Origin: a virus
Lineage: Duplodnaviria > Caudoviricetes
Strand: one strand, 5' to 3'
IMG/VR virus record: IMGVR_UViG_3300033153_003999
Location: 1-63,536 of that record
Length of the DNA stretch: 63,536 bases
Positions 2,576 through 61,919 of this stretch are shown here, one piece after another (the stretch's first letter is position 1; the number at the start of each line of letters is the position of its first letter). Under the pieces are notes generated by a model. The model worked only from the letters and a program-made list of their open reading frames with translations, did no database searches and had not been told where the DNA came from. Made by a program: the position numbers and the translations under genes.

Positions 2576-2921
2576 CAACGATACGCTGCAGCCACGGGAG
2601 ATAGCAATGTTGTGGATCGACAGCAGGGGCAAACCAGAGGAGGAGCGCCGTGCATTACTCGAGGAACAGATCCAGCAATATGCGAATCCCGAGGGCTGTC
2701 GGGCGATGGTGCGGCACTATGTCAATCAATACGTGGCGGAGGAGAAGAAGCGTGGACAAAATACTTGAAATGTTGGACGAGATGATCGAAGGCGACCAGG
2801 AGGGCCTGACCGACTGGGAGAAAAAATTTATCAAGTCGGTCAATCGTCAGCGCAAGAAAGGCCTAACCGCCAGACAGAACATGCACATATCCCAGATCTG
2901 GGACAAGTGGAGAAAAATACA

Positions 2922-3215
2922 ATGAACAAGGTTGAGTATCTGCTTACAGTTCTTGGCGAGGAGTGTGCCGAGGTTATCCATCGCGCGTCGAAGGTGAAGC
3001 GGTTTGGTCTGCATGAAGTCGAGCCCGGGCAACACAAGACGAATGTTGAGAGGTTGAATCTGGAGGTCAACGATCTCATGGGTGCCATCGAAGAGCTGCA
3101 AGATGCTGGTGTGGACATCGTTTTTAACATCAAAGCGATAGAGCGGAAGCGGGCCAAGATCCGGAAGTACATGCGCTACTCCCGTAAGTGCGGCTGCCTG
3201 GAAGCCGATGGATAG
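2922..3215 (+). CDS. MazG-like nucleotide pyrophosphohydrolase-fold protein
   Basis: LGEECAEV...LNLEVNDL acidic helix motifs. Confidence 0.6.
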   Translation: MNKVEYLLTVLGEECAEVIHRASKVKRFGLHEVEPGQHKTNVERLNLEVNDLMGAIEELQDAGVDIVFNIKAIERKRAKIRKYMRYSRKCGCLEADG

Positions 3216-3364
3216 GATCCATTGCGTGGCTGTCTTGTTGGCGTATTTTGCCAGCGCACACATATTCGCGGTAGCGATGGTGAGGCACGATTTTTGGTTG
3301 GCCGCGCTCTGGCTGGTGATTGGCATGTTTTACGTTCGTCAAAAAACGCTGTTAGAGGGGAGAA

Positions 3365-3907
3365 ATGGCCGTCATAAATAAACCAGGGCGCGAGCCAATC
3401 AAGTGGAATGAGCACAAAGCTCAGAACGAGCTTGCGTCGTATTGTATCCAGCGCCAGCACCAGATCTATGTCCCCAATTTTCAGGCCTTCCCTTATTTCG
3501 AGAACGATCTGGCCTCGATCACGAAGGCCGGTCTCTCGCACGTGTTTGAGATTAAATGTAGTCGCAGCGATTTTCTTAAAGAGTTTGGGCCAGGACGAGC
3601 GAGCCGCATAAAAAGTGACAGGCTGAATCAGTACGAAAGGCGAGACTGTCGAGGTGCTAATTATTTTTGGCTGGTGTGCCCGGAGAATATTATCAAGTCC
3701 ATGGACGAAATACCGGAGTGGGCTGGCGTTATTTGGCTACACCCAGACCGGGATCCGCGTGATAGCTGGTGCCGAGATCACACCGTTGAACGCACGGCGC
3801 CGAGGCTGCACGGTGAGAAGGCGAACCCCGAGGTTATTCTCAAAATGGGGCATGGTCTTGGCATTAGATACTGGGATAAGCGGAGGTTCGATCAAATAAA
3901 TGGCTAA
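3365..3907 (+). CDS. PD-(D/E)xK nuclease-like protein (MmcB-like)
   Basis: ENDL...FEIKCSRSDF...ANYFWLVCP...EIPEWAGVI. Confidence 0.65.
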   Translation: MAVINKPGREPIKWNEHKAQNELASYCIQRQHQIYVPNFQAFPYFENDLASITKAGLSHVFEIKCSRSDFLKEFGPGRASRIKSDRLNQYERRDCRGANYFWLVCPENIIKSMDEIPEWAGVIWLHPDRDPRDSWCRDHTVERTAPRLHGEKANPEVILKMGHGLGIRYWDKRRFDQING

Positions 3908-4133
3908 GAGCACTATCACGCTGGCCTGTATGCCGGGTGAGATCAGAATTGGTGACGTGTTAACTGGGCTGAGCAGCGGTGAAGACGTGACCGTTTGGGA
4001 AATCACCAGCGAGACATCGTTTACGGTCAAGCCGTGGCGCTGGTATCACAAGTATCAGCTGGCGGTGCTGGCTGCTGGCTGGTGGTATTGGTTGTTGGCG
4101 GGTGTAATTTTTATCATGGAGAAACTGCAATGA
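3900..4133 (+). CDS. small membrane protein
   Basis: C-terminal hydrophobic helix; overlaps neighbours. Confidence 0.55.
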   Translation: MAKSTITLACMPGEIRIGDVLTGLSSGEDVTVWEITSETSFTVKPWRWYHKYQLAVLAAGWWYWLLAGVIFIMEKLQ

Positions 4134-4342
4134 GAAATATAGATTGGGAAACTTGGGGGCCGATGCTTGTCGCATTTGTGTTGGTGGTGCTGATGTTGAC
4201 CTATCTCGGGTCGTGGGCAAAGGCCGAGCGCAAATGCCTTGCTGCCGGTTACAAGTCTGGCAAGATTGATGTTCTGTTGACTGGCTACTGCATCAAGCGC
4301 GTAGACCAGACCGATGTCGTGGTACCGTTGAAAAAAATATAG
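4130..4342 (+). CDS. small membrane protein
   Basis: ATGA overlap, GGAG RBS, N-terminal TM helix. Confidence 0.55.
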   Translation: MRNIDWETWGPMLVAFVLVVLMLTYLGSWAKAERKCLAAGYKSGKIDVLLTGYCIKRVDQTDVVVPLKKI

Positions 4343-4353
4343 AGGAGACCGTT

Positions 4354-4611
4354 ATGGAATTACATGAGCGAATAATACAGGCCAATGATTTGGCAACCTT
4401 GTTAAAGGACACGAAAAGCAGGCGTGTTGGCGCGTCACGATGCGGCAATAAGAATAATGCTGTTAGTTTTGGTACGAGAACTTTTGGTACTGGTGAGCGC
4501 GCCCAAAAGGTAGCAGATGAAATTACCGCTATTGCCGAAAAATACAACGCTGAATATATCAATGAGCTTGAAGAGCAAGTGGCGAAAGCATTTGCTGGGG
4601 TGGAAAAATAG
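4354..4611 (+). CDS. hypothetical protein
   Basis: AGAGGAGAC RBS before ATG. Confidence 0.7.
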   Translation: MELHERIIQANDLATLLKDTKSRRVGASRCGNKNNAVSFGTRTFGTGERAQKVADEITAIAEKYNAEYINELEEQVAKAFAGVEK

Positions 4612-40652: not shown

Positions 40653-43600
40653 TGGCGCAAGATCCATGGGCAGTTGTTACCGATGAGGGGCAAGACGATC
40701 CATGGGCTGTGGTCGTAGAAGAGAAGCCTGCCGCCGAACCCCTATCTCTATCCTTCGATCAAGGCGAAGCCGTCACCCCTGCCGGTGAAGAAAAGGTACC
40801 GTTTGGTGTCGTCCCCACTGGCTACAAAGAAGAAGTCCCCTATCTCCCGTCTGGCGAGACCATTGGAAAGGTGATCTCGACTGAAGGCGACCCCATCGGC
40901 ACCACCATCCAGAAGTCACTCACCCAAATTCCTCCACTATTACAGGCCACGGCTGGCGGCCAACTCCAAGCCCTTGGCGAGGACGTTCCCGATATTGAGC
41001 GCCTGACCGCGATTGATGTTGCTGGTGATGGAGACGAGTTCGAGATCCCTGACTATTTGCAAGACAAGCCTTCCGTAGATGCGGCTGAGTTGCTGCGCGA
41101 GACCGGCAGAAAGACCTATATGGCCGGGATGAAGGAAGCAGGGCGTCGAGCTCCAAACGTGCCGGAGGGGTCGTTCAAAAAATATGTTGCTGACGTGACG
41201 GTTGCGACAGGCCTTATGTTGCCTTCGCTCGCGGCCGGCGTTGTCACCAAGAACCCTAACGTGGCGCTGGCCGTCATGTATCCGCAGGTAGCAGGGCAGG
41301 AATACGGTCGCCAGCGGGCTGAAGGCCAAGACCGTGACGTTGCCCATGCCAGAGCCCTGGTTATCTCGTTATCAGAGATCGTCACCGAAAAGCTGCCGTT
41401 CGACCAGTTTATTAAAGGCAAGGGCAAGAACATCCTTGGCCGTATATTTAAGGCCATAGGGCTTGAGGGCGGGCAGGAGTATGTCCAGGCCGGTGTCGAG
41501 GTGTTGGTTGATGAAGGCCTGCTCGAGTGGGATATGCCTGCTGCCGAGGCTCTGAGCAAGATAGGTCAGCTCCTTGCCGACCCTGAGAATCAGAAGAAGA
41601 TGCTGTATCAGGCTCTTGTCGGCGCCGGCATGGGCGGTGTTCTCGGTACCCCCGCTGCCATTGCACAGGGTTTCCAAAAGCCGGGAGAGGCCATACCAGA
41701 TGACGTGGAGCCAATACCGGGCTTTAAGGCCGAGGATTTGTTTGGTGCCGTGGAAGAGGAAGAGGTTGCCCCGGCCCCTGAACTTGAAGCACCTGTTGAC
41801 GAGTGGGCGGAAGAAGAACCGCCAGCTCCGGAAGAGGACTACACCGAGCCAGAGCCCAGCTACGGGATCCCCGAACCAGAGGCAGTGGCGCCGCCAGAGC
41901 CGGAGATCGTGGAGCCAGCTGCAGAGGAGCGTGCTCCAACCATCAAACCGTGGAAGGGTAGAAAGCGGTATGGTATGCAGCCGGTAGACGCGCGCTATGA
42001 CGACCTTCTTGCCGTTGCTGCCAAGAGTGGCGGTATCAATATCGACGCCGCTACCAGCGAGGGCATAGATCCTGCCATCTTGCGAGACCGCTTGGGCGGC
42101 GGCAAGATGCCGGTATTCCGCAAGGAAGGCGGAATGACTATCGATTCCTTGGCTGAAAAACTGGAAGAGCTGGGCTTTATCGATGAACGTGACGCCAATG
42201 CGGCGCTCGATGTTCTGACCGACGCCGTGACCAAGGAGGCTGCTGGCGAACGCGTGTACTCGAATCAGGTCGATGCCGACATGCTGGCCGAGACCAGGAA
42301 AGAGCCGACCCCGGAAGAGGAGGCCTTCGAGCCCACCGACGTTAAGCAGGATCTCGACGATCTCATGGAGCAGGCCCAGGAAGCGGCCACCACGCAGGAG
42401 CAAGAGCTTAGGCTCGAGCGCATATTGTCCCGCGACATCGAGACTCCTGACGCCGAAATGCAGCAGGCTCTCGCCGACTTTATCGACGAGACCCGCACCC
42501 TGGCACCAAAGGCGTCAACTACCGCTATCCCTGAACAGGAAAGCCGTCGTCGTAATATCGCCTACCGGAAAGATCTTGAGCAGTTGACGCCTGACGAAAT
42601 GCGCGAGGCCGTTGCTAAATTGCGCGAGGACGCGACCCGCGATCCCATGACTGGGGCGCGCTCGTTCTCAGCTTTTGAGGATGATGCCGACCTGGGCTGG
42701 GAATATGTTGGCGCTGCCGACATGGACGGCATGGGCTGGTACAACGATAACTGGGGCCATCAGGCCACCAACGATCTGCTTAAATCTGTGGCAGACGCTA
42801 TGAATACAGTGGAAACGGAGCAAGTGCGTTTCTACCGGCTGCATGGTGACGAGTTTGCCGTGCGAGCCACCAGCGAGGAATTTGCCCGGTCTGCACTGGA
42901 AGAGGTACAGAAATTGCTTGCCTCTTCACCCGTGGAAGTGAGCGGGCTCAATGAAAAAGGTGAGCGCCAGACTTTCAAAACGGAAGGATTAGGCATAACC
43001 TACGGTGTAGCGAAGAGCTACGAGGAGGCTGATAGTGAAGCAAATGAATGGAAGCAAAAGCGCCAGCAGCGCGGCAAGCGGGCTGCAAAAGGTAAGGAAC
43101 CTGTTGGTCTGGGCAAAAAGCCTGCCGCCGTTGAAAAACGTCCGCGTGAAGGTATCCCTACCGAAGAAGGCGTAGCCGACACCGAGATCACAAAACAGGT
43201 AGACGCTAAGAAGAAAAAGAAGGTTGTATCAAGGCCGGCACAAAGGAAAGCCAAGGTCTACCAGCCTATTAGTGATGGTGTTCTTACTCACACCAAGCTC
43301 TTTGGCGATAGCTCTGGTGCTAAGTCCTTGAAGTCTCAAAGTTTTAAGTCTCTCAAGAGGGACGAACAACATGTGGTGCTCACGAAGATGAGAGCTGCGT
43401 TTAACGACGACAAGATTTTCAGGGCTGTTATCAATACCATTCCCGTTGATATGATGAACGTCCTCATCGGGAAGAAGTGGTCTACCAAGGATCTCCTCCA
43501 TAACAAGTCTATGCTCACCAATAGGCTTACCGTCTCGCGTAACGTACCGATAACGAAGTCCATAATCAGCGTCATCGATGAGCTTTCTGCCGCGATCGAA

Positions 43601-58515: not shown

Positions 58516-59552
58516 TATTGTTTCGCCAGACAGGAATCGCAGGTATCGACGCCCTGCTCCACTTCAACCGGGTTAACGCCGCAGAGGGTACACATACCGG
58601 GCGGGATCTCTGCCGGTGGCTCTTCTTGTTCTGCCTCAACGGCCGCGACCTCGGGCTTTGACTGGATTGTGATCGCGTCGTTGAGTCGGGCCACGCACTC
58701 GTCGTAATCAGTTTTTGCCAGATCCGACAGGCTCTCGATCTCGAAGGCGGACAGTATCTTGTCGGGAGCGACTCTGGCACGCAGCACCAGATCTGTGATG
58801 TTGTTGAGTTGCTCCTCGCCAATGACTTCCACGACATCGTCAGTGATGTCGTGCGTAATGCCTTCATGCTGGTTGAGCACGTCGATAGCCGTGTCCAGGC
58901 GGGGGCTGCCGCTCGAGCGCGGCCACAACTTGGCAGCGCGCTTGACCAGCGTTTTTTTCATCATCTGGATGGTGTGGTCTACCCACGGGCCGGCTTTCTT
59001 CCTTTTGTAGTACTCGGATTTGTCCCGGATCCGGTACAGCTCGTCAACGCCCATGCGGGTTGCCATCACGGATCCGTCCTGCAAGATGGCGACAACGTAA
59101 CCGCCCTTAATGCTGTCCACGCTGTCATCCCATGGATCGGCAACAGCGTGTTTGGGATAGGTGAAGCCGTCGATCCATTCAAAAGCGTCGGCCTCGCGCA
59201 CCATTTCCACAGTCAGCGTCTTGAGAACGCCGCTATCGGTAGCGAGCTTGTACAGTCCCTTGTATGAAATATCGAGACAGCACTTGCCGTCACGAGGTAC
59301 GAGGTAGGTCAGGGCTTCGGCTGGGTTGAGCGTGAGACCAATGGCAGCCACGTTGGTAATGGCGTCGATGATCGTCTCCTGCGGCATGCCGGCGAGATAA
59401 TCGTTTCCCCTCATTATCTGCATGGCGAAATTGGACTCTGTTCGCCAGTCAACGAGGTCGCCGCTCTTGTGCGCGATCTGTATAAATTTCGGTTCTGCCT
59501 GCTGGACAAGACCTGAAACCACAGCCATTTGATTACTGCTTGTTTTCGCCAT
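58515..59552 (-). CDS. recT: RecT-family single-strand annealing recombinase
   Basis: A.IGLTLNPA...YLVPR...LDISYKGL..LA; GPW....QMMKKTLVKRAAKLWP. Confidence 0.9.
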   Translation of the reverse strand: MAKTSSNQMAVVSGLVQQAEPKFIQIAHKSGDLVDWRTESNFAMQIMRGNDYLAGMPQETIIDAITNVAAIGLTLNPAEALTYLVPRDGKCCLDISYKGLYKLATDSGVLKTLTVEMVREADAFEWIDGFTYPKHAVADPWDDSVDSIKGGYVVAILQDGSVMATRMGVDELYRIRDKSEYYKRKKAGPWVDHTIQMMKKTLVKRAAKLWPRSSGSPRLDTAIDVLNQHEGITHDITDDVVEVIGEEQLNNITDLVLRARVAPDKILSAFEIESLSDLAKTDYDECVARLNDAITIQSKPEVAAVEAEQEEPPAEIPPGMCTLCGVNPVEVEQGVDTCDSCLAKQ

Positions 59553-59784
59553 TATCGTCTCCTCGATAGAATTAGTTTCGGGCGAAGGGAGATTCCCCTC
59601 CCAAGCGCCCTCCCGGCTTTGTTCAGCATCACGGCCTTGGCTTACCGTACCGGTATGGATCGTCTACCTTACTCCGATGGATTGTTCTTCGGAGCGTGCC
59701 AGCGTTCTGTGCCTACTCGTGTGTCCAGGCCGGGTCTTCCTCCGGCAAGGCAGATCTAACAACGACACACTTTCGGCAAATCGG

Positions 59785-59890
59785 TGGACAGGGCAGGACT
59801 CGAACCTGCAAATGTCATGGTATCCGGGCGTATTCGCCCCATGCGGCTAGTGCACGACCCCGGAGCGTTTTCCAATTTCACCACCTGTCC
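59785..59890 (-). ncRNA. tRNA-like element (106 nt) with expanded anticodon/variable region
   Basis: Acceptor GGACAGG/CCTGTCC-A, Leu-type D arm GTGAAATTGGAAAAC, T arm GCAGG-TTCGAGT-CCTGC. Confidence 0.7.
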
Positions 59891-59995
59891 ATAAATAAAT
59901 ATCTTGCAAAGCAGCCTCCTGGCCTGAGATCCCGTCGTCTGTCTACGGGCAACCCAATATCTCTACTGGGAGCAGCCTCTAAGGAGGATTTTCAA

Positions 59996-60059
59996 TTACC
60001 TTTGACCGTTCAGGGTTCAGAGTTGAAAAATTGAGGTTTCAATTTTTAGCTTTGAACTT
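59996..60059 (-). repeat. nine degenerate ANNNTNA units (one is 8 nt)
   Basis: AAGTTCA AAGCTAA AAATTGA AACCTCA ATTTTTCA ACTCTGA ACCCTGA ACGGTCA AAGGTAA. Confidence 0.75.
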
Positions 60060-60073
60060 CTTACTCGGCCTAT

Positions 60074-60149
60074 TGGCTTTTCCAATGGGAATCGAACCCA
60101 CGACATTACGCCTAAACGCGTATGCTCTAACCAGCTGAGCTATGGAAAG
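60074..60149 (-). tRNA. atypical tRNA (76 nt, encoded CCA, 6-nt anticodon loop, C1xA72 mismatch); isotype undetermined
   Basis: CTTTCCA TA GCTC AGCTGGTTA GAGC A TACGC GTTTAG GCGTA ATGTC GTGGG TTCGATT CCCAT TGGAAAA G CCA. Confidence 0.85.
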
Positions 60150-60213
60150 GTGCAGGTAAGCGACCTGCGCGCACAAACATTATTCTCACTTCGCTAGACA
60201 AGATAAAACCTTT

Positions 60214-60753
60214 CTAAAATAGATAGTTGTCGATGCTGGTCGTAGCATTGGTCATGGACAGCATGCCATCCAGCTGACCCAAGGTCTCAACCATGTCCTC
60301 AACCTCACAAACGAGATCGCGCTCGTTAATGTTGATGATGACGTTTTCCGGGTTTTCCGTCTCTTTATCGGAGACAGGGGCACCTTTGTTGATTGCTTCC
60401 TGACGGATCTTGCGAATACTGTTCTGCATTCCGGTCAGGTTTGCCTGTACCCGTGGCGCAATGTCTCGGCGCCAGACAATCCACTCAGAAATTGAGCGAT
60501 CAACGCCGTTTATGGTGATCCTGTTGCTCTCGTTGGCGCGATTGATGGCGATCCGGAGTTTCAGGGCGCGGTCATTGAGGTCGTCCATGGCCTGACGTTC
60601 TCTTTTAATCTCGCCGGCCTGGCCGCCCTCTTTAATGAAGGGGTCGGAGAATTTTTCCTGGCGGTACAGGTGCTCGTTAACAAAGCTGGCCTTCTTTTTC
60701 AGCCGTTTGCCGATGGTTTTAATCTCGGCCAGAGCTTCAGTGATAGTGCTCAT
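60214..60753 (-). CDS. DIP1984-like coiled-coil protein
   Basis: TITEALAEIK.I.KRL..K; LR.AINRAN...I.ING...SISEWI..R; LDG.LS..NATT.I; GAGGAGAC RBS. Confidence 0.7.
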   Translation of the reverse strand: MSTITEALAEIKTIGKRLKKKASFVNEHLYRQEKFSDPFIKEGGQAGEIKRERQAMDDLNDRALKLRIAINRANESNRITINGVDRSISEWIVWRRDIAPRVQANLTGMQNSIRKIRQEAINKGAPVSDKETENPENVIININERDLVCEVEDMVETLGQLDGMLSMTNATTSIDNYLF

Positions 60754-60792
60754 GTCGTCTCCTCGGTTTTAGTTGAACTTTGATGGTTGTTG

Positions 60793-60821
60793 AGGTTAAA
60801 CTCCATCGCAGACAAATGCAA
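60793..60821 (-). promoter_or_regulatory. sigma70-type leftward promoter
   Basis: TTGCAT-17 bp-TAACCT on the minus strand, upstream of 60753. Confidence 0.6.
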
Positions 60822-60831
60822 GGGGATCTCG

Positions 60832-61107
60832 ATGCGAGGAAGAAGCAGGAACGCCGTCAAATTGGAGGCGATCTATAAACGTAATAGAAAGGTGCTTGTC
60901 GATGCCGTCAAGAAATTCCCGAGAGGGTGGGCTGGTCTGGCAGACGGTCTAAATACCTGCGGCTTTAAGGGTATAGGACGTGACAATTGTCACTCATGGA
61001 GCAAAACACAGGGTACGCCACTGGAATACCTGGAAATGGTCGAAGCCCTGCTCCGGATTCCGAGAGAGAAGCTGCGCCAAGACGTACCCTGGAGGCAGCA
61101 CCCTTAA
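60832..61107 (+). CDS. Cro/YdaS-like HTH regulator
   Basis: First rightward gene; G.AGLA..L...W....P....VE....IPREKLR.D. Confidence 0.55.
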   Translation: MRGRSRNAVKLEAIYKRNRKVLVDAVKKFPRGWAGLADGLNTCGFKGIGRDNCHSWSKTQGTPLEYLEMVEALLRIPREKLRQDVPWRQHP

Positions 61108-61919
61108 TGTATGGGAAGGTATTTGAAACTATCTATGAATCCACGGTAGCTGATGACTGGCGGTCGTTAATCACCATGATTCAGTTGATTGTTCTGGCCG
61201 ATCACCGTGGCGAGGTGCATCACAGTATACGTGGCCTGCACCGGATCACCGGGATTCCACTTGAGCACCTCAAGGCCGGCATTGAAATGCTTGAGTCACC
61301 AGATCCCGAGAGCCAATCAAAAACAGAGGAAGGTAGGCGAATTATCAGGTTCCCAGAGGTTGATGGTCGTCAACCCGTAGGCTGGAAGCTCGTCAATTAT
61401 GAGTATTACCGAGACCTGGGCTCACGATACGAAAACAAGGAAAAGGCAGCGGCCAGACAAAGAAGGAAAAGAATCAGAGATGGTGACAAGTCACAGAAAA
61501 ACACAAATAAGCGTGACACGTCACAAGCTGTCACGGACAGTCACGCATGTCACGGTGATACAGATACAGATACAGATTTTAATAATATATGGGTTCATTA
61601 CCCAAAAAGGGCAGGATCAAATCCGAAGAAACGAGCCCGTAAAGCGTTTAGCGCCAGAATTACAGAGGGCTCCACTTTTGATGGAATCTCACAGGGAGTA
61701 GACCGTTACTATGCCTACTGTGAAGCTACGGGAAAACTCAACACCGAGTACGTCATGCAGGCCGTTACTTTTTTTGGGCCTGAACACCATTATGCGAACA
61801 AATGGGAGTTACCCAATGAAACACGCGGGAAACTATCTGCCCCAGAAAGGGTTGAAGCAGCAATCCGGAGGAGAGATGGGGAAAAACCAATCGAAGGAGA
61901 GTTTGGGCCAGATAACTGA
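61107..61919 (+). CDS. replication initiator (O-like)
   Basis: YGKVF..IYEST, GW.LVNYEYYR, DTDTDTD linker, F..W..YPKR, YV.QA.TFFG. Confidence 0.8.
   Translation: MYGKVFETIYESTVADDWRSLITMIQLIVLADHRGEVHHSIRGLHRITGIPLEHLKAGIEMLESPDPESQSKTEEGRRIIRFPEVDGRQPVGWKLVNYEYYRDLGSRYENKEKAAARQRRKRIRDGDKSQKNTNKRDTSQAVTDSHACHGDTDTDTDFNNIWVHYPKRAGSNPKKRARKAFSARITEGSTFDGISQGVDRYYAYCEATGKLNTEYVMQAVTFFGPEHHYANKWELPNETRGKLSAPERVEAAIRRRDGEKPIEGEFGPDN
61483..61577. repeat. putative replication origin iterons within the initiator gene
   Basis: GTCAC at 61490, 61520, 61530, 61540 and 61549; inverted GTGAC at 61483 and 61513; (GATACA)3. Confidence 0.6.

Follow-up and report, generated by a model that had tools for sequence, protein, structure and literature searches.

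The 63,536-bp window analyzed here is a complete IMG/VR virus record (IMGVR_UViG_3300033153_003999) in which a gene for a small helical protein is separated from RecT (59552–58515) by 661 non-coding bases on the minus strand. What does this gap encode, and does its content belong with the gene that precedes it? It is near certain that the gap holds a member of a real, uncatalogued family of structured RNAs, and the comparison of related loci gives good support to the proposal that this RNA is the dedicated partner of the neighboring family of helical proteins. The most likely reading of the pair, to which we give about an even chance of being right, is a two-part phage cassette whose dimeric helical protein and 306-nucleotide (nt) non-coding RNA form a protein–RNA particle on an array of heptads.

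An initial annotation, made from the letters of this DNA, had proposed a 179-residue gene followed by a structured RNA region, and the minus-strand coordinates obtained here agree with it almost letter for letter:

60753–60214, minus strand: gene of the helical protein, an open reading frame (ORF) of 179 amino acids with its stop codon at 60216–60214
60205–59900, minus strand: the structured RNA, whole, 306 nt from the 5′ strand to the 3′ strand of its closing helix P1, as delimited by alignment A2, pair counts and model R1 (see below)

Eight nt separate the stop codon from the first base of the closing helix (60205). In P1, UAUCUUG (60205–60199) and AGC (60195–60193) pair with GCU (59914–59912) and CAAGAUA (59906–59900); the region of about 306 nt that had been proposed to be closed by these strands was thus found at 60205–59900, and its closing helix covaries among relatives.

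A profile scan of viral contigs yielded 53 loci related to the window. The window and 36 of these loci were aligned with MAFFT (alignment A2, 37 sequences). Left out of A2 were four loci in which the 3′ strand of P1 was mislocated or the contig was cut (L003, L009, L012, and L050), the near-duplicates L045 (of L044) and L053 (of L005), and 11 loci whose 5′ joint was not matched by a regular expression allowing up to 4 mismatches (L011, L022, L023, L024, L026, L027, L028, L035, L040, L048, and L052); a further alignment, A3, additionally drops L042. Every locus omitted from A2 or A3 still gave a match to the covariance model R1 described below. The core of the RNA, with its positions in the window and in A2, consists of the following elements:

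60205–60193, minus strand: 5′ strand of P1, with UAUCUUG at 60205–60199 (P1a; A2 columns 7–13 with 488–494; 6 of 7 pairs change on both sides) and UAGC at 60196–60193 (P1b; A2 columns 16–19 with 478–481)
60188–60184, minus strand: 5′ strand of the pseudoknot (PK), UGAGA, within the conserved joint GAAGUGAGA(R)AA; A2 columns 24–28 with 455–459; 94.6% paired; 4 of 5 pairs change on both sides; crosses P2 and P3
59992–59986, minus strand: AAAAUCC, which ends the heptad array and whose final C is the first base of P2; columns A, A, A, and C invariant in A2
59986–59983, minus strand: 5′ strand of P2, CUCC, pairing with GGAG at 59919–59916; A2 columns 389–392 with 464 and 475–477; three core pairs 100% paired, all changing on both sides
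59977–59974, minus strand: 5′ strand of P3, GGCU, pairing with GGCC at 59924–59921; A2 columns 398–401 with 460–463; 93% paired; 4 of 4 pairs change on both sides
59971–59952, minus strand: hairpin P4 with a GAGA loop; A2 columns 404–411 with 418–425; 8 of 8 pairs change on both sides
59951–59930, minus strand: hairpin P5; A2 columns 426–430 with 450–454; 5 of 5 pairs change on both sides
59929–59925, minus strand: 3′ strand of the pseudoknot, UCUCA, placed by pair counts
59924–59900, minus strand: 3′ strands of P3, P2, and P1 in immediate succession (GGCC, GGAG, GCUG, then CAAGAUA)

In A2, 90.6% of 1,346 cells were paired, compared with 65.4 ± 0.9% in shuffled alignments (none of 500 reached the observed value) and 40–46% when the partners were slid by 1–3 columns. 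The covariation score was 0.687, against 0.218 after shuffling and 0.12–0.16 after sliding, and both sides changed in 31 of the 37 pairs. As the helices were derived from this same alignment, the slid control is somewhat flattering; the changes on both sides, which occur in all helices but the nearly invariant P1b, are independent of that bias. Since the pseudoknot crosses P2 and P3, the core is a true pseudoknot. G-U pairs were frequent, for instance in 32 of the 37 sequences at columns 12/489 and in 27 at columns 401/460, and positions dominated by G-U make the fold specific to the sense strand of the gene, and it therefore acts as RNA.

Most loci present the same succession of features behind the stop codon: a joint like GCGAAGUGAGAGAA, a variable stretch, AAGAAGCU with A-rich 7-nt units, AAAUCC, hairpins with GAGA- or GAAA-type loops, UUCUCAGG, GGUGGCUGC, and the complement of the bases preceding the joint. 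RNAduplex found a long-range closing helix at 250–370 nt in most of 44 loci, with diverging sequences and preserved complementarity. The recurrence that had been predicted among homologs for the terminal helix, the heptad array, AAAAUCC, and GGCUGC was thus borne out. Within the window, the GCAGGU/ACCUGC hairpin, AAAAUCC, the GAGA-loop hairpin, and the duplicated GAGGCUGCU (59979–59971 and 59918–59910) all lie where they had been described. Two proposed pairings did not stand. The helix between GGCCGAG (60070–60064) and CUCAGGCC (59928–59921) is present in the window sequence; it was rejected, as it competes with two helices that are conserved and covary, P3 and the pseudoknot UGAGA/UCUCA, and no counterpart was seen in L008 and L013, two loci read by eye, with no count over the alignment. 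Among the hairpins said to be enclosed by it, the GAGA-loop hairpin is P4, whereas a local CCUC/GAGG hairpin was rejected, covariation making it one strand of the long-range P2.

Rfam 15, searched at E ≤ 1 over 59400–60900, gave two tRNA matches and three chance-level matches on the other strand and nothing else, in agreement with the view that no characterized Rfam family fits the region. At the Rfam gathering score, 54 related loci (387 kb) contained tRNAs only, plus one transfer-messenger RNA (tmRNA) elsewhere in L039.

The association of this RNA with the gene was followed with R1, a covariance model of the RNA 3′ domain (36 sequences, 128 positions, 21 pairs). R1 gave 54 matches in 54 viral sources (the window and L002–L054; 440 kb, both strands), one in each and no second, always on the strand of the gene and with E-values from 5.9e-22 to 0.0075; the window itself scored 74.3 bits (E 5.6e-14). 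The RNA lies downstream of the gene in 52 of the 54 sources and starts 2–25 nt past the stop codon in most loci. In contigs of metagenome-assembled genomes (MAGs), R1 matched at 13 of 14 loci, and the 14th contig ends with the gene. In each of the 54 viral sources, and at all 13 MAG loci that retain DNA past the gene, the conserved RNA that had been expected behind homologs therefore lies next to it. These MAG contigs are assigned to at least six bacterial phyla, with labels such as Gemmataceae, Alphaproteobacteria, Chloroflexota (several), Chitinophagales, Gemmatimonadaceae, Vicinamibacterales, and Emcibacteraceae.

A search in the opposite direction, from the RNA to the gene, provided a weak reverse test of this linkage. 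The 15-mer AGCGAAGTGAGAGAA of the joint occurred at 57 viral loci, three of which carried the gene by hmmsearch, and the same three matched R1 at E ≤ 1e-14; the other 54 were set aside as chance matches, with no gene and no R1 match above chance (two weak ones, E 0.17 and 0.89). A search with the 3′ pattern returned one contig only, which was already among the loci. Detection of the family depended on a profile of homologs, as a search of viral contigs with the single window protein found no related loci, and neither blastn with the 1.2-kb region nor tblastn with the protein had a match among cultured phages (50,697 records). When ORFs of at least 80 amino acids from 69 loci were clustered, none recurred in more than six loci besides the gene and its antisense shadow ORF, and the cassette therefore consists of the gene and the RNA alone. 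These linkage data support well the notion that the RNA is dedicated to the helical-protein family.

Some loci show unusual layouts. In L113, a Gemmataceae MAG contig, two family genes (2830–3528 and 3788–4600) flank one RNA in the order gene, RNA, paralog. In L049 (3387–4132), an apparent frameshift divides the family gene into two ORFs that overlap, and the RNA that follows is intact (98.9 bits with R1). Behind the gene of L048 lies an ordinary tRNA-Ala.

The large loop pinched off by the core contains a periodic array and a tRNA-related module, which in the window are located as follows:

60168–60152, minus strand: hairpin A of the variable module (GCAGGU/ACCUGC), from sequence and folding
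60149–60074, minus strand: embedded tRNA, called by ARAGORN and by Rfam tRNA (RF00005; 50 bits against a gathering score of 29, model positions 1–71 at 60149–60077)
60062–59987, minus strand: array of about eleven 7-nt units, 76 nt, with the family consensus unit UNAAAGN and a +1 phase slip in unit 5

The nine 7-nt units of the initial annotation were correct in that the periodicity exceeds chance; by the family consensus the count is about eleven, with the phase slip. The autocorrelation of A at lag 7 was 0.47 in the window array, and over the 37 arrays of A2 it was 0.204, compared with −0.013 ± 0.017 (maximum 0.032) in 200 shuffles. Measured from AAGAAGCU to AAAUCC, the array is 75–79 nt long in 32 of the 37 sequences and 84–109 nt in the remaining five. 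A protein-binding register would be expected to leave such a pattern, in which the length is constant and the inner sequence free to vary.

The embedded tRNA of the window, the sole ARAGORN call and one whose "anticodon" was reported as two bases, has a 6-nt anticodon loop (GUUUAG), a C1×A72 mismatch, discriminator G, and an encoded CCA. Working decoder tRNAs have a 7-nt anticodon loop with U33 and a purine at position 37; with its 6-nt loop the window copy is unable to decode normally, which agrees with the earlier description of a whole atypical tRNA inside the element. It is not, as had been implied, a peculiarity of the window. Elements with an internal tRNA at the Rfam gathering score were found in the window and at 15 of the 54 other viral loci (16 of 55; L004, L009, L010, L013, L015, L017, L022, L031, L032, L033, L035, L037, L038, L044, and L045). 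The anticodons given by ARAGORN differ among them (Ile, Lys, Arg, His, Gln, Val, "Tyr," "Ser," and two more odd loops), and the "Tyr" and "Ser" anticodons (L044 and L033) sit on bodies with short variable arms, too short for bacterial class II tRNAs. As read by eye from the sequences, CCA is encoded after the discriminator in 5 of 15 standard embedded tRNAs, that of the window included, and most have normal 7-nt loops.

In at least eight loci (L006, L011, L014, L019, L023, L049, L054, and L116), the tRNA parts are circularly permuted, in the order T arm, acceptor 3′ strand, closing loop, acceptor 5′ strand, and D arm, with the anticodon arm before or after this block. On in silico rotation, ARAGORN called a tRNA in 10–183 of 200 rotations per permuted locus, compared with mostly 0 calls and a maximum of 52 in controls (10 shuffles per locus); in the weakest case, L011, there were 10 calls vs. 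0–1 in the controls. Many loci hold tRNA fragments only. Of the 37 variable modules, 21 had hairpins of tRNA type (5 bp, loop YU-NNN-R-N, T arms counted too), compared with 1.0 ± 0.96 for shuffled modules. This RNA family thus has, as a recurrent and integral part, a tRNA-like module of either standard or permuted topology, which is a new finding, and the fact that a tRNA-shaped domain is joined to the RNA at varying points argues that its shape matters in cis. Separately, the hairpin loop CUUGAAA is repeated in the otherwise dissimilar variable modules of L008, L012, L018, L030, L041, and L051, where it could represent a loop motif under conservation instead of an "anticodon" that drifts.

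We also analyzed the helical protein, which belongs to a large and mostly viral family. Among 205 candidates (90% clusters), 156 were relatives, with a best non-self identity of 51%; at the level of 50% clusters, 584 representatives were found at E ≤ 0.001, of which 484 at ≤ 1e-10, and the clusters of the protein Atlas closest to the window protein are mostly viral. In an alignment of 29 family members (A1), 37 columns were invariant and clustered in the N-terminal segment (TITEALAEIKT.GKR), around DW..WR, and in the C-terminal segment (LDG.LSL.NAT). The AlphaFold2 (AF2) model built on A1 (predicted local distance difference test, pLDDT, 95.6; predicted template modeling score, pTM, 0.80) consists of four long helices and short beta hairpins. 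When two copies were modeled together, the homodimer score was 0.76, compared with a best value of 0.00 in three controls; among proteins of solved structure, this mark was attained by 20 of 30 pairs of one chain and 1 of 23 single chains. Contact agreement between runs was at least 98%, the pLDDT of the partner was at least 91, and the same residues touched on both copies. The window protein is accordingly predicted by modeling to be a symmetric (isologous) dimer, with its invariant N- and C-terminal segments outside the predicted interface, a prediction that may reflect the predictor's memory of the multi-chain crystal 3KDQ.

This crystal, a protein of unknown function from Corynebacterium diphtheriae (DIP1984 family/DUF6847), was the top Foldseek match to the model in the PDB (E 5e-3, probability 1.0, template modeling (TM) scores 0.51/0.59, root mean square deviation 9 Å, full length), and the next entry had an E-value of 0.48. 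The structure row for DIP1984/DUF6847 in the Atlas gave TM scores of 0.57/0.66. The earlier designation DIP1984-like is therefore retained for the fold, where it would be a statement of modeled likeness with a weak top match, and not for the sequence, whose comparisons with the profiles of that family stayed below threshold. No Pfam or NCBIfam family matched the window protein at E ≤ 0.01; NF038048 (DIP1984) reached E 0.029 and 14.5 bits against a cut-off of 70, with 9 of the 29 A1 members matching at E ≤ 1, and PF20935 (DUF6847) E 0.13 and 12.7 bits against a cut-off of 27, with 5 of 29 members matching at E ≤ 1. Against PDB sequences, phmmer found nothing and a profile found only two chance matches, 3KDQ not among them. 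The window protein did match phrog_1491 over residues 3–130 (E 2.3e-10; 4.1e-11 in a second search), and nothing in this analysis supports the label "tail fiber protein" attached to this PHROG.

The Atlas also lists a "Siphovirus Gp157 family" cluster as a structure neighbor (TM 0.68/0.70). Gp157-type genes often sit just upstream of RecT in recombination modules, and this neighbor, together with the position of the gene just upstream of RecT in the window, is a hint of a link to such a module; the Gp157 family has no sequence match to the window protein, and the RecT neighbor is not conserved among the loci.

Phage T5 (AY543070; L128) has a counterpart of both parts. Its gene T5.085, annotated as hypothetical (212 amino acids), matches phrog_1491 over its full length at 3.3e-82, and hhalign of T5.085 with A1 gave a probability of 59% (E 9e-5) and kept the N-terminal and N..T.V.I landmarks aligned. 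The roughly 360 bases that follow T5.085 (43142–43504 of the record) carry no annotation. Their closing duplex, between positions 10–44 and 327–369 past the stop codon, has −32.3 kcal/mol, and none of 200 shuffles was as good; they also contain AAACCC and an A-rich array, about 109 nt long, with periodicity at lags 7–8 (at lag 7, 1 of 500 shuffles was as high). R1 did not detect the element in T5, its best match having an E-value of 1.1 and lying elsewhere in the stretch. The T5 element, as judged from its sequence and from the duplex and periodicity statistics, resembles the window RNA in architecture and not in sequence. T5.081 with RNAX had been considered first as the T5 counterpart and was dropped; Pfam found nothing for T5.081. 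The T5 record annotates "stable RNAs with unknown functions," among them RNAX (719 nt, 40848–41566, next to tRNA-Arg), RNA1, RNA2, RNA2H, and others.

In the cassette that we favor, the closing helix, the pseudoknot, and P2–P5 would fold into a compact core and set apart a large loop containing the tRNA or tRNA-like module and the single-stranded array. The RNA would be made together with the gene, and its tRNA parts would be trimmed by the host tRNA-processing enzymes. Several protein dimers would then bind the periodic array, the length of which would set the number bound, while the folded core would set where binding starts and stops. The resulting particle would display a tRNA-shaped domain, which points to host factors that read tRNA shape, such as processing or modification enzymes, tRNA-cutting defense nucleases, or the ribosome. 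The initial annotation had put forward an anti-defense decoy, a toxin–antitoxin-like pair, and translation control as candidate roles.

Several observations weigh against this picture. Physical contact between protein and RNA is suggested by adjacency and co-inheritance only. The order of the two parts is not fixed, since in L011 (RNA at 2673–2799, about 690 nt from the start of the gene) and in L048 (3314–3440, 46 nt) the RNA lies upstream of the family gene, of which each locus has a single copy. The folding energy was not significant, either for a 313-nt stretch with the element (z = −1.36) or for the 661-nt gap (z = −0.41), and because thermodynamics alone is not significant, the support for the structure is the covariation. 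Membership of DUF6847/DIP1984, as far as sequence profiles indicate, is below threshold. A register of one subunit per heptad would draw no direct support from the predicted interface, which is that of a closed symmetric dimer and not of a ring or filament. Finally, the standard embedded tRNAs could be working tRNA genes lodged in a permissive loop instead of a displayed mimic.

Of the alternatives, the one that survives best, unlikely as we judge it, is that the RNA is a machine in itself, self-sufficient and perhaps multimeric like ROOL and GOLLD, and that the protein is merely co-expressed or acts as its chaperone or regulator. The intricate, pseudoknotted, and strongly covarying core would suit such an RNA, as would the position of the element in or beside tRNA clusters in several loci (e.g., L010, L030, L054, and T5). 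Like ROOL and GOLLD, the window RNA combines a phage setting and an ornate fold with proximity to tRNA islands (PMC12286853). In contrast to them, it is smaller (about 250–365 nt), it is adjoined by one protein family in every examined locus that retains DNA beside the gene, and it carries a periodic single-stranded array; ROOL and GOLLD have neither a dedicated protein gene nor such an array, and neither was matched in the Rfam scans. A fixed-length, unstructured, periodic array of 76 nt suggests a protein-binding track more than an RNA–RNA interface.

A more specific form of the favored particle would be a new class of phage ribonucleoprotein, in which dimers are arrayed along an RNA "ruler" of eleven units anchored by the pseudoknotted core and a tRNA domain of standard or permuted topology serves to capture, decoy, or redirect host machinery reading tRNA shape; as a complete account, it seems to us doubtful. 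Anticodon-cutting defense nucleases, RNase P, other tRNA enzymes, and the ribosome would be candidates for that machinery, and the variation of the anticodon loops would stem from an arms race.

The RNA might instead be a processing or 3′-untranslated-region element, which stabilizes the upstream mRNA and delivers or punctuates ordinary embedded tRNAs by means of RNase P and RNase Z. We hold this to be distinctly improbable, despite the short distance between stop codon and RNA, the normal-loop, partly CCA-encoding standard tRNAs inside, and the further tRNAs found within 10 nt in the window, L044/L045, and L049 and about 50–130 nt away in L033 and L023. Tyr- and Ser-type anticodons on unsuitable bodies, mere tRNA fragments in many loci, and, in at least eight loci, permuted tRNA-like domains with the acceptor end closed by a loop do not suit it; nor does a processing signal need a covarying pseudoknot core of 130 nt and a fixed eleven-unit array, and in L011 and L048 the RNA precedes the gene.

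In type III toxin–antitoxin systems such as ToxIN, exact RNA repeats of 30–40 nt are cut into monomers. A pair of this type, with RNA repeats neutralizing the protein or the reverse, is suggested by the location of a protein gene beside a repeat-bearing RNA and by a cassette that is autonomous and mobile among unrelated phages, and is nevertheless very unlikely, as the protein is modeled as an all-helical bundle and not as an endoribonuclease fold, and the units are 7 nt long with variable cores in place of exact repeats of about 30–40 nt. That the 7-bp units are DNA sites (iterons, an origin, or a partition site) for the neighboring or a replication protein can be given next to no credence in spite of their proximity in the window to RecT and to a DnaD-like loader (60987–61919), as the array belongs to a strand-specific fold rich in G-U pairs, a 7-bp period does not hold sites on one face of a duplex, and the genomic context varies among loci.

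For the particle on the heptad array, which remains our preferred reading, analogies exist in TRAP on the trp leader, HutP on the hut leader, and CsrA on CsrB, oligomeric proteins that read evenly spaced, short single-stranded RNA motifs; the sites of HutP recur every 7 nt, and those of TRAP number 11. The window protein has no homology to these proteins, and its predicted symmetric dimer contrasts with the ring-type interface of TRAP; likewise, its array of UNAAAGN units is located in a stable non-coding RNA and not in a leader. DIP1984, DUF6847, and PHROG 1491, connected with the window protein through the fold match to 3KDQ and, for PHROG 1491, through a match shared with T5.085, are families with no known function.

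The closest working analogy is offered by Ro60 and its Y RNA, a protein gene with an adjacent partner RNA that bears a tRNA-mimicking domain. A Y RNA with such a domain is encoded beside the gene of Ro60/Rsr in more than 250 bacterial and phage species (PMC4201824). YrlA is reported to be modified by tRNA enzymes, and YrlA of M. smegmatis to be cut by RNase P and to receive CCA (PMC4201824). The two systems differ in that Ro60/TROVE is a ring, whereas the AF2 model of the window protein is a four-helix bundle, and Pfam scans of the window protein found no Ro60/TROVE family at E ≤ 1. The window RNA is about three times longer than Y RNAs, which lack both a pseudoknotted core and a heptad array, and no Y RNA family of Rfam matched it. 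RNA binding is proven for Ro60, while the present system is known by the adjacency of gene and RNA.

Literature searches (DIP1984/DUF6847/3KDQ, T5.085, phage permuted tRNA by title and abstract, and T5 transcriptome or stable RNA) returned no description of a gene–RNA module. A catalog that draws 10,006 candidates for structured RNAs from IMG/VR and from RNA viruses, some of them overlapping tRNA predictions only sometimes, may list this RNA as an unnamed candidate (PMC10690425). Read as cautiously as possible, the RNA still represents a new class of large structured RNA beside ROOL and GOLLD, with a dedicated protein partner gene. If gene and RNA form a particle, it would be a widespread and uncatalogued phage protein–RNA system. 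The RNA also offers a natural example of a tRNA-shaped domain that is attached to the RNA carrying it through differing circular permutations, its fixed-length single-stranded array resembles a molecular ruler, and the T5 version makes the question accessible to ordinary phage genetics and biochemistry in E. coli.

The rest of the gap in the window contains a further tRNA-like feature:

59785–59890, minus strand: second tRNA-like gene, Rfam tRNA 39.5 bits, with no ARAGORN call

It begins 10 nt past the RNA. Its acceptor stem, D arm, and T arm are good, its anticodon arm has about 30 surplus nt, and CCA is not encoded; RNase P cleavage at this gene may define the 3′ end of the RNA. From there to RecT, about 230 more non-coding bases (59784–59553, minus strand) carry GC-rich hairpins with no Rfam match. 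The leftward promoter assumed in the initial annotation was not recovered, as a sigma-70 scan found no promoter-like site on the minus strand; no terminator-like site was found either. The tmRNA of L039 mentioned above is a full gene (923–1284, Rfam 132.7 bits) on a viral contig and precedes the cassette by about 2.2 kb.

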